DNA from: Escherichia coli
Lineage (GTDB): Bacteria > Pseudomonadota > Gammaproteobacteria > Enterobacterales > Enterobacteriaceae
Length of the DNA: 64,000 nucleotides
Assembly: GCF_048403405.1 (NCBI RefSeq)
Contig: NZ_CP183129.1
Strand: one strand, 5' to 3'
Of the stretch, positions 36,001 to 39,000 are shown piece by piece; position 1 is the first letter of the stretch, and each line of letters opens with the position of its first letter. The position numbers were made by a program.

Positions 36001-39000
36001 ACTTCAGCGATAAGCTCCATCCAGGCTTTTTGCTCTGCGACGCAGATATCCGGGTTATAACTGTCACTCAGAATGTAGACATCAAAGTGTTTGGCATTCC
36101 CGGTGGCTTTTACTGATTCCCACGTTGCACGCAAGCCAGCAAAAACACGGTTCACGTCTTCGTTACAGATAGGCATGATCAACGCCGTGCGATGCTCCGG
36201 GTTTAATGGTTCATCGCCAACTGTTGACGCAGATATACTGTATTTATCGCGACCAATGAGCAGTTGCAGGAACCCCATCAACGCAGTCCAGAATCCGGCG
36301 GACACCCAACAGAACAGTACCGCAAAGAGGATCAGGATACCAGTTTGCAGCATATAAGGCAGAAGCTGCATAAAGGAAACCCACAAATCCTGACCAACCA
36401 TATCCATAGGATTAATCAGCGCCCAACCCTGATAAGGAAGAATGGTCTTCATATACCAGGTCGCGACGACAGTTTGCGCGAGCGTCAGGATCAACAGAAT
36501 GTAACGGCGGATGGTACCGACGGTACGCCACTTTTGCTCGCTCTCCTGCTCTTCTTTGGTCAAACGAGCCAGATAGCGCGGCGTTACATCGCGTCCACGC
36601 AGGCGATCCCAGAAACGGCCTACCGGGTTGGTACGCCACGGGTCGGGAAACATCGAGGAGCGTTTTGCTTCTGGCATCGCCTTAAGCTGATCGCGCCCTT
36701 CGTCGTCTTTAATTAACTGTCCATCAGCAAGTGAATCTGGCCAGGCTTGTTCCAGACGCGCCTTTACCGAGCCTTGCGGGGAGTCATCCTCCCGCGCCCA
36801 GGTACGGTGGTCGGCATCCAGCGCCTGATGAACGGCGCGGATATCAGTCTTCGGCAATGCCGCTTTCTCGCTTGCGGCGATGGGCATTGCGTCAATGTAC
36901 TCAGTTGTCTTATTCATTGGCAGGTAACTGGTAGCTCCAGGTTTCACTCAACGTCTGATCGGCATTCACCAGCGCAGCACGCATTTCAGTGGTTTTTTTG
37001 GCATCTTTCACTTTCACACGCATCACCAGACGCCAGCCTTTGGTGACCGGGTTATAGCGCACCGTGCTTTCCACTATCTCACCATTATCACCAATGCTGG
37101 TTTGCGCTGTGACCGGGGTATCCTCTGGCAGTTTTTTCATCTCTGCGCCGGTAAAATCGACCACAAAGGCGATAGTACCGTCAGGCTGGCGAATCAGGTT
37201 CGACTGCTTCACATCCCCCGTTGAACGACGCGTTTGTTGCACCCATGCGTTATCTGGCGCATGCAGTTTGTCTTCATCACGGCTGAAGGTGATGGTGTAT
37301 TTAAAGTTCATCTCTTTACCCGGCTCCGGCAGCTGATCCGGCGTCCAGTAAGCGACGATGTTATCGTTGGTTTCATCGTTGGTTGGAATTTCCACCAGCT
37401 CAACGCTGCCTTTGCCCCACTCCCCTTTCGGAGTCACCCATGCGCTTGGACGAAGATCGTAACGATCATCGAGATCTTCGAAGCGGGAGAAATCACGACC
37501 GCGCTGCAACAGACCGAAGCCTTGCGGGTTTTCCATTGAGAAGCTGCTGACCGCTAAATGTTTCGGGTTATTCAACGGACGCCAGATCCATTCGCCATTA
37601 CCAGCATGGATAGAGAGACCGTTAGAGTCGTGCAACTCCGGACGATAGTTATTTGCAGGCGACGGTTGGTTCGGCCCAAACAGGAACATACTGGTTAACG
37701 GTGCAACCCCCAGTTTGCCGACTTTATCGCGCAGATAGATTTTCGACTGCACATCCACAACCGTGTCACGCCCTGGCATAACTACGAATTTGTAAGCACC
37801 TGTCGCGCGCGGCGAGTCAAGCAATGCATAAATGGTTAAACGTTTATCAGTCGGTTTTGGACGCTCGATCCAGAACTCTTTGAAGCGTGGAAATTCTTCA
37901 CCCGATGGCAAGGCGGTATCAATTGCCAGGCCGCGTGCAGAAAGGCCATAAACCTGACCTGCACCAATCACGCGGAAATAGCTGGCCCCGAGCATGCTGA
38001 CGATTTCATCGTTTTTATCTTTGCTGTTGATCGGGTAAAGCACTTTAAAACCGGCAAAACCAAGGTCTTTTACCGTGTCTTTGTCATGCTGAACATCGCC
38101 GAAAGTGAAATAATCCGGGCTGTATTTGATTCGTTTGACTGCGGTGGCAGTCACTTCATTTATTTTGACCGGGGTATCGAAGTACATACCCTGATGGTAG
38201 AACTCGAGTTTGAATGGGGTCTTCAGATTGTTCCAGTACGCTTTGTCATGATTAAACTGGATCTGCTGATAGTCCGCGTATTTCATGTCGCGGAAAACGG
38301 AGGGCAAGTTGCTTTTGGGCGCATCATAGCCTTTCCCGGCTAAGGATTGAGCTTGCTTTGCGACATCATCAATACTGAAAGCCCAGCTTGAAGATGTATA
38401 CAGGGTTAACATTACTGCAGCACTCAACCAACGCATTTTCATCATTTGTAGTTTATGTTTCATAATTAGTAAGCACTTCCCCCTTTGTGTGCTTATATCG
38501 ATCCGATCTATTTTAATGGATAACAAGCCATTCCGACAACAGAATCCCGGTATCGTTCAGCACGCTGGCTCATGGATTAAGCACCTGATTGCAACCGTTT
38601 TCACTTTCCGTGCTTCTCCTAAAGACAGAAGCATCGACTTCGTGTAGGGTTTGCCAGCAAATTTATTTATCAACCGTCTTACAGACGCTTCCATTCTGGT
38701 TAGTGGTAGCGATGATGCTATGCATAAAAACCTTGAAGCCTGCGCCTGGCGCGGTCAGGTCGGTGTCGCTATGGCAACAAGCCTAAAGGCATAACCCGAC
38801 AGGGATAAGACGAAAAATCCGAGATTAGTTAACCATATATGAATCCAGTACCCGCGCAACGTGAATATTTCCTCGACTCCATCCGCGCCTGGCTGATGTT
38901 GTTAGGGATCCCTTTTCATATTTCTTTAATCTATTCGAGCCATACATGGCATGTGAATAGCGCCGAACCGTCATTATGGCTGACCCTTTTTAATGACTTC

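Follow-up and report, generated by a model that had tools for sequence, protein, structure and literature searches.

In a 64,000-nucleotide (nt) stretch of Escherichia coli DNA (NCBI RefSeq assembly GCF_048403405.1, contig NZ_CP183129.1; hereafter the window), three pairs of adjacent genes, i.e., opgG/opgH, pgaB/pgaC, and flgI/flgJ, share 8, 8, and 1 nt at their stop and start codons. A sequence-only reading of the window had listed these pairs together with a further 8-nt overlap at ymdB/clsC. The observation holds in part: three of these four junctions coincide with real gene boundaries, whereas the start call at the fourth is unsupported. The three confirmed cases are operon junctions of an ordinary kind in the E. 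coli core genome and have already been catalogued. The explanation favoured here, and considered likely, is termination-reinitiation at such ordinary junctions, with clsC as a separate case.

Confirmed overlapping junctions

A megablast search and two annotated references placed the window on the E. coli chromosome, where it spans rpmF to efeB and runs opposite to K-12 (approximately 1.083-1.148 Mb). On window coordinates, 62 K-12 coding sequences (CDSs) were placed via their first and last 36 nt. Gene ends were checked against two independent annotations, i.e., the curated K-12 record NC_000913.3 and that of strain IPCEC48 by the Prokaryotic Genome Annotation Pipeline (PGAP). All four overlap strings were found at their coordinates by direct check. 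K-12 and PGAP agreed on the 8-nt overlaps (distance -8) of opgG/opgH and pgaB/pgaC, as well as on the single shared base (-1) of flgI/flgJ, whereas the ATG that would make a third 8-nt overlap at ymdB/clsC was in neither annotation. The features of the three confirmed junctions are as follows.

36910..36917, minus strand: opgG stop/opgH start overlap ATGAATAA, with opgH ATG at 36917..36915 and opgG TAA at 36912..36910; -8 in K-12 and PGAP
36910..38445, minus strand: opgG (mdoG) CDS, of which the last ~30 nt are the opgH translation initiation region
34374..36917, minus strand: opgH (mdoH) CDS, by K-12 CDS mapping
59765..59772, plus strand: pgaB stop/pgaC start overlap ATGATTAA, with pgaC ATG at 59765-59767 and pgaB TAA at 59770-59772; -8 in K-12 and PGAP
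57754..59772, plus strand: pgaB CDS, by K-12 CDS mapping
59765..61090, plus strand: pgaC CDS, by K-12 CDS mapping, followed by pgaD after a 1-nt gap
10442..10446, minus strand: flgI stop/flgJ start TGATG, 1-nt overlap, with TGA at 10446..10444 and ATG at 10444..10442; -1 in both annotations

In each pair the genes are adjacent, overlapping, and on the same strand, so there is no intergenic room for a promoter or terminator. The distances of -8, -8, and -1 fall inside the range that supports reinitiation (-8 to ~+6 nt). No well-spaced Shine-Dalgarno (SD) sequence was found for opgH, pgaC, or flgJ, and the median SD pairing in the window was -5.9 kcal/mol.

Probable translational coupling by termination-reinitiation

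The ribosome that ends the upstream protein would halt with its P site on the codon before the stop, i.e., G3A4A5 in ATGAATAA. The downstream AUG (A1T2G3 of ATGAATAA) would then lie just 2 nt back, within the footprint of the terminating ribosome. Judged from the order of the letters, this displacement would equal that of a -4 junction and would be less than that of a -1 junction. After termination, the ribosome or its 30S subunit could re-pair initiator tRNA with the AUG and begin the next protein. Because the three starts are without a well-spaced SD, reinitiation is probably a large contributor, supplying a good share of opgH, pgaC, and flgJ translation, with some independent initiation besides. 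The output of OpgH, PgaC, and FlgJ would thereby be tied to that of the upstream gene.

Short overlaps of -8, -4, and -1 have been tied to translational coupling in previous studies (Huber 2019 Nat Commun; Huber 2023 Front Microbiol; J Bacteriol 2025 review). Among overlapping E. coli pairs tested in the Huber work, three of five were strictly coupled, one was partly coupled, and one (bioBF) was uncoupled; coupling collapsed within ~14-38 nt of added distance. The missing SD does not exclude reinitiation, because the published contribution of the SD spans none to essential.

Several points weigh against coupling at the three junctions. The bioBF pair is fully uncoupled despite a weak SD; the experimentally tested E. 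coli pairs are all 4-nt overlaps, with none of the -8 class; and -8 overlaps reinitiate less efficiently than shorter ones (Huber 2023, PMC10666635). Moreover, the starts of opgH and pgaC, and weakly that of flgJ, recruit ribosomes without upstream translation in INRI-seq, i.e., retapamulin-based ribosome profiling in vitro, in which each synthetic fragment comprises the first part of a gene and the 30 nt ahead of its annotated start. Since the isolated opgH and pgaC fragments show initiation at moderate levels, a strict dependence on the upstream gene is unlikely. The description of these overlaps as the classic arrangement for coupling is partly supported: the distances (-8, -4, and -1) are the textbook ones and a well-placed SD is lacking, but opgH and pgaC also initiate by themselves in vitro. 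Independent initiation had been named as what would speak against coupling; it was found in part, and in vitro only. On balance, substantial in-vivo coupling at opgG/opgH, pgaB/pgaC, and flgI/flgJ appears somewhat probable.

Other data sets added little. The Ribo-RET values (Meydan 2019, via the INRI-seq table) were 0 for opgH, pgaC, flgJ, and clsC, which is uninformative as expression was low. The TRAINSPOTTER N-terminomics set includes the database start of opgH and does not list the starts of clsC, pgaC, and flgJ.

Conservation of the three junctions

Loci of relatives were collected by a genome-contig scan with YmdB and 10-kb flanks, which gave 35 loci, 34 of them Enterobacterales. The remaining locus is a Taibaiella metagenome-assembled genome (MAG), in which neither clsC nor opgGH adjoins the YmdB match.

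The opgG/opgH junction was the most uniform part of this set: an ATG at the -8 position was present in 32/32 scorable Enterobacteriaceae loci, and ATGAATAA itself was unchanged in 30 of them. LSJC7 and Tenebrionibacter carry ATGAGTAA, with another in-frame ATG 12 nt further on. Across 31 species, synonymous variability in the last ten opgG codons was 0.12, the lowest ten-codon window in the gene (mean 0.32, 5th percentile 0.21). This indicates nucleotide-level constraint on the ~30 nt ahead of the opgH start (window 36910-36940, minus strand); an independent ribosome-binding site would also be expected to lower the variability, which counts against taking it for coupling. A published survey puts the central distance of the MdoG/MdoH COG pair at -8, based on 180 genomes (Huber 2023, PMC10666635). 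The sole SD-like match for opgH, UGGAGC (-5.6 kcal/mol), lies 16 nt upstream and is too distant. The in-vitro initiation peak at the opgH ATG in INRI-seq was 24-33 counts per million (CPM).

For pgaB/pgaC, relatives were sought by tblastn against plasmid and megaplasmid records. The junction is ATGACTGA (-8) in K. pneumoniae, ATGA (-4) in a plasmid-borne pga operon of 67% identity, TAATG (-1) in A. baumannii, and TGAcgcATG (+3) in Ralstonia. By these alignments, the junction is tight (-8 to +3) in all five lineages, and the eight-base form itself is not conserved. The best SD pairing of pgaC is only -2.8 kcal/mol, and its INRI-seq peak was 14-26 CPM.

The flgBCDEFGHIJ genes are given as a polycistronic transcript in a published listing. 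SD pairing of flgJ is -3.3 kcal/mol, and the INRI-seq peak at its start was weak (0-10 CPM). The published central distance of FlgI/FlgJ is ~+6 over 468 genomes (Huber 2023, PMC10666635). By this figure, the tight flgI/flgJ junction is only loosely kept and the overlap is not broadly conserved. Within the same flagellar genes, the flgF-flgG spacer is 136 nt here vs 171 nt in K-12 (window 13086-13223), and flgE is 1206 nt here vs 1209 nt in K-12 (window 13998-15203).

Frequency of short overlaps in the window

The bare motif ATGNNT(AA|AG|GA) occurs 92 times on both strands of the window, which is about the random expectation; it carries meaning only when it coincides with gene ends. Among 46 same-strand junctions in the window (ymdB/clsC included), there were two of -8, one of -1, and none of -4. 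Junctions within -8 to +6 made up 10/46 (22%), compared with 707/2,987 (24%) in K-12 genome-wide. The K-12 rate of -8 junctions was estimated from the first 71 pairs of the published Huber 2023 table, which hold two of -8 (kefF/kefC and murC/ddlB), six of -4, and four of -1. At this rate of 2.8% per pair, ~1.3 would be expected in the window, and P(>=2) is ~0.37. The 8-nt overlaps had been called recurrent; their count matches the genome-wide background, and an enrichment of -8 junctions in the window was rejected.

The zero count of 4-nt ATGA overlaps among the 46 junctions is mildly odd, although this is a post-hoc remark on a small sample. Small sample size is the probable cause, in a region with many single genes along with flagellar and curli operons.

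In 2.66 million same-strand gene pairs of 1,695 species, -4 is by far the commonest distance, followed by -1 and then -8, and -8 is the third commonest class in E. coli also (Huber 2023, PMC10666635). Overlaps of 2 nt and 5 nt are impossible, as they cannot hold both a start and a stop codon (Huber 2023, PMC10666635; J Bacteriol 2025 review); therefore, -8 is the shortest overlap of its reading phase. Table S2 of Huber 2023 (PMC10666635) lists by name pgaB/pgaC at -8, opgG/opgH at -8, flgI/flgJ at -1, and ymdB/clsC at +1, so that the observation is not new to the literature.

Alternative explanations for the three overlaps

The overlaps could be neutral by-products of genome compaction, in which the upstream stop was lost and the frame runs to the first stop inside the next gene, while opgH, pgaC, and flgJ mainly initiate independently at A-rich, unstructured starts. 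The in-vitro initiation at opgH and pgaC on isolated fragments agrees with this explanation, as do the uncoupled bioBF pair with its overlap and weak SD, the variable overlap length of pgaB/pgaC, and the non-overlapping flgI/flgJ of most genomes. RNA folding agrees as well: folds at the three junctions ranged from -5.7 to -9.1 kcal/mol with z-scores of -0.5 to +0.8, i.e., weak and no better than shuffled sequence. However, neutral drift does not readily account for the opgG/opgH junction, with its -8 position kept in every scorable locus, fewer synonymous changes in its last ten codons, and the same central distance over 180 genomes, nor for a pgaB/pgaC distance that never goes beyond +3. Tight junctions are strongly enriched genome-wide over the neutral expectation, and 4/5 tested pairs are coupled, while initiation on short denatured fragments is uninformative about a full polycistronic mRNA. 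The neutral explanation is therefore considered unlikely, without being negligible.

Coupling could also work through RNA unfolding, in which upstream ribosomes melt a structure at the start and a fresh 30S subunit from solution initiates. Many cases are collected in the J Bacteriol 2025 review, and the unfolding and reinitiation models are not exclusive. At ymdB/clsC, treated below, a CUCCUU stretch pairs with the AAGGAG SD, and the proximal start was silent in vitro on the fragment bearing this hairpin, which agrees with unfolding at that pair. At opgH, pgaC, and flgJ, however, the predicted structure is weak and the starts are already active in vitro, so there is little to unmask; a terminating ribosome at -8 or -1 would also occupy the start and block a second ribosome until it is gone, as argued in the J Bacteriol 2025 review. 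On the folding result, RNA structure was rejected as the general cause of the three overlaps, and coupling through unfolding is rated a little less likely again than neutral compaction.

Comparison with known systems

The termination-reinitiation (TeRe) pairs of Huber 2019 and 2023 resemble the three junctions in their same-strand order within one operon, in the -8/-1 distance, and in a start within the footprint of the terminating ribosome. They differ in three respects. The validated E. coli pairs are 4-nt overlaps, whereas those here are -8 and -1; SD removal cut reinitiation in 4/5 tested pairs, whereas the SDs of opgH, pgaC, and flgJ are weak or misplaced; and opgH and pgaC also initiate independently in vitro. 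The K-12 -8 junctions kefF/kefC and murC/ddlB share the ATGNNT(AA/GA) architecture, which occurs about once per 35 same-strand pairs. These genes are unrelated to those of the window, and in vitro the ddlB start was detected and the kefC start was not, i.e., behaviour within the class is mixed.

For ymdB/clsC, the closer likeness is to the MS2/fr coat-lysis overlaps (-50/-38), rpmI-rplT, and f1 VII-IX (J Bacteriol 2025 review), through a long overlap of 59-68 nt or a hairpin-paired SD within the upstream ORF. In contrast to these systems, the ymdB/clsC hairpin is only 6 bp and is predicted from sequence.

The start of clsC

Three in-frame starts were considered for clsC, and the public annotations disagree on the choice (K-12 TTG 44469 vs PGAP ATG 44529).

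44471..45004, minus strand: ymdB CDS, with stop TGA at 44473..44471
44476..44478, minus strand: clsC start of the sequence-only reading, the ATG of ATGAATGA (string 44478..44471); in frame, and would give an 8-nt overlap
44467..44469, minus strand: curated K-12 clsC start TTG (K-12 position 1106355), one nt past the ymdB stop (+1); 473 aa
44527..44529, minus strand: PGAP clsC start, a distal ATG in the Tyr-Asp codons of YmdB (tATGAy), with a 59-nt overlap with ymdB; 493 aa
44479..44497, minus strand: predicted 6-bp hairpin CUCCUU (44497..44492)-N7-AAGGAG (44484..44479), which would sequester the clsC-proximal SD

The distances of +1 and -8 are inside the reinitiation range, and -59 is outside. 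In sequence comparison, conservation across Enterobacteriaceae genera was seen for the distal ATG alone. In ~20 other genera and species its equivalent is the only in-frame ATG/GTG/TTG near the junction (overlap 59-68 nt); these include Salmonella diarizonae, arizonae, Atlantibacter, Leclercia, Lelliottia, Huaxiibacter, Silvania, Superficieibacter, Franconibacter, and others. The Tyr codon that holds the distal ATG is TAT in 29/30 species, against a TAT background of 54% in ymdB. The one TAC is found in the Citrobacter clade, where the distal frame is closed by an in-frame stop and a new ATG lies at +2. The distal frame is open in 26/30 species, compared with 47% of windows of this length and frame in the rest of ymdB.

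The curated TTG 44469 has the best SD of the candidates, AACAAGGAGA, whose pairing energy is -8.5 kcal/mol at a spacing of 8 nt; AAGGAGAUGA matches 9/10 positions of the SD consensus. The TTG position is ATG in Citrobacter R56, Awk4, and NCU1, and TTG in C. sedlakii and C. koseri. E. albertii has TTA in its place with a weakened SD (AAGGCG), and retains the ATG 44478.

In INRI-seq, the clsC fragment holds the SD, the ATG 44478, and the TTG, and leaves out the distal ATG. On this fragment, initiation at the proximal starts was zero in 5/5 replicates, with the transcript at 316 reads per million (RPM). The CUCCUU/AAGGAG hairpin appears in both the minimum-energy and the centroid folds, in 46-nt and 91-nt contexts, and in such modelling it could be the cause of this in-vitro silence. 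An alternative to the distal ATG would be the TTG, with its strong SD held in a hairpin that ribosomes translating ymdB would open.

Some evidence speaks against both of these possibilities. The SD of the distal ATG is poor (-3.8 kcal/mol at 13 nt), and the counts of TAT codons and open frames are not phylogenetically independent and are confounded by a conserved YmdB motif. The hairpin is only ~-6 kcal/mol and 6 bp, and its z-scores are not significant. NCBIfam has no ClsC-specific model from which the N-terminus could be read by profile coverage, and no conserved Cys or lipobox was seen in the ClsC N-terminal extension when the peptides were compared by eye across genera.

It could also be that the sequence-only reading was right, with ClsC made from ATG 44478 at a third true 8-nt overlap, ATGAATGA, by reinitiation without an SD. 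This ATG is in frame, and from the order of the codons it would lie 2 nt behind the P-site codon at the ymdB TGA, in the same geometry as opgG/opgH. Its retention in E. albertii, where the TTG is lost to TTA, agrees with its use, and the in-vitro silence would fit a start that depends strictly on reinitiation. However, it was chosen by neither the K-12 curators nor PGAP. Its occurrence is limited to Escherichia, one Citrobacter MAG, and C. koseri, with ACG there in C. sedlakii and no start codon of any kind at this position in most genera. Furthermore, it abuts the strong AAGGAG SD with zero spacing, while the same SD is 7-8 nt from the TTG. ATG 44478 is therefore regarded as improbable, and is the least supported of the three candidates; a third 8-nt overlap at ATGAATGA is correspondingly doubtful. 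The distal ATG 44529 is quite possibly the start in E. coli, a view held with some reserve, and the TTG 44469 is put forward more tentatively.

A 2021 review (PMC8027125) notes that clsC clones including ymdB yield more ClsC "by an unknown mechanism". Tentatively, the start region of clsC may lie inside ymdB, at an ancestral and maybe still real distal ATG, or may be a hairpin-gated TTG, and the ymdB requirement may be cis-translational in either case. A cis-translational explanation of the requirement is plausible and has been partly anticipated.

Interruption of clsC by an ISEcp1-blaCTX-M-14 unit

In this strain clsC is a truncated ORF, as the sequence-only reading had said, and this holds whichever start applies: an ISEcp1-blaCTX-M-14 unit splits the gene.

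40734..43772, plus strand: ISEcp1-blaCTX-M-14-deltaIS903B transposition unit, 3,039 bp, inserted in clsC opposite to the gene orientation
40729-40733 and 43773-43777: target-site duplication TTATA, flanking the ISEcp1 unit
43773..44469, minus strand: clsC 5' fragment, codons 1-232 (K-12 numbering), with the first HKD motif kept
40004..40733, minus strand: detached clsC 3' fragment, with the second HKD motif

The 5' ORF runs into the foreign DNA, which adds 41 residues up to a stop at 43650..43648. Because the insertion cuts clsC in two, the question of its start is moot in this strain. Plasmid copies annotated as CTX-M-14 match the unit at 100% identity, and the IS903/clsC junction was found in none of 5,426 complete RefSeq E. 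coli genomes. In the complete genome that is closest by coverage (NZ_AP026794.1), an ISEcp1 element lies in mdtG (18493-19755, L001) and not in clsC; these are therefore independent landings at different sites of this neighbourhood.

Other features of the window

The gene content of the window includes yceD, rne, the flg genes, murJ, pyrC, opgGH, opgC, clsC-ymdB, the csg genes, ghrA, pgaABCD, and phoH. Compared with K-12, the block IS3D-ymdE-ycdU (between dgcT and tRNA-Ser) is missing (window 53364-54731 / 52938-53364), as it is in IPCEC48, and the 3' end of dgcT is unlike that of K-12 (window 53364-54731 / 52938-53364).

Significance

The overlaps themselves are of little consequence, as the junction classes are textbook and the exact pairs are tabulated. 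The residual novelty is limited to the clsC start question and its possible link to the ymdB requirement. The analysis has a corrective value, in that an ATG beside a stop codon is insufficient to call a gene boundary; at ymdB/clsC there are three starts, and two annotations disagree. The chromosomal ISEcp1-blaCTX-M-14 unit that inactivates clsC matters for resistance epidemiology and not for translational coupling. If the distal start is true, the 473-aa ClsC of K-12 would be ~20 residues too short, or would be one of two isoforms. With either the distal start or the hairpin-gated TTG, the long-noted need for ymdB in clsC clones would come from translation in cis, with the YmdB protein itself playing no part. 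For lipid biology, this raises the small question of why ClsC production needs ymdB in cis.

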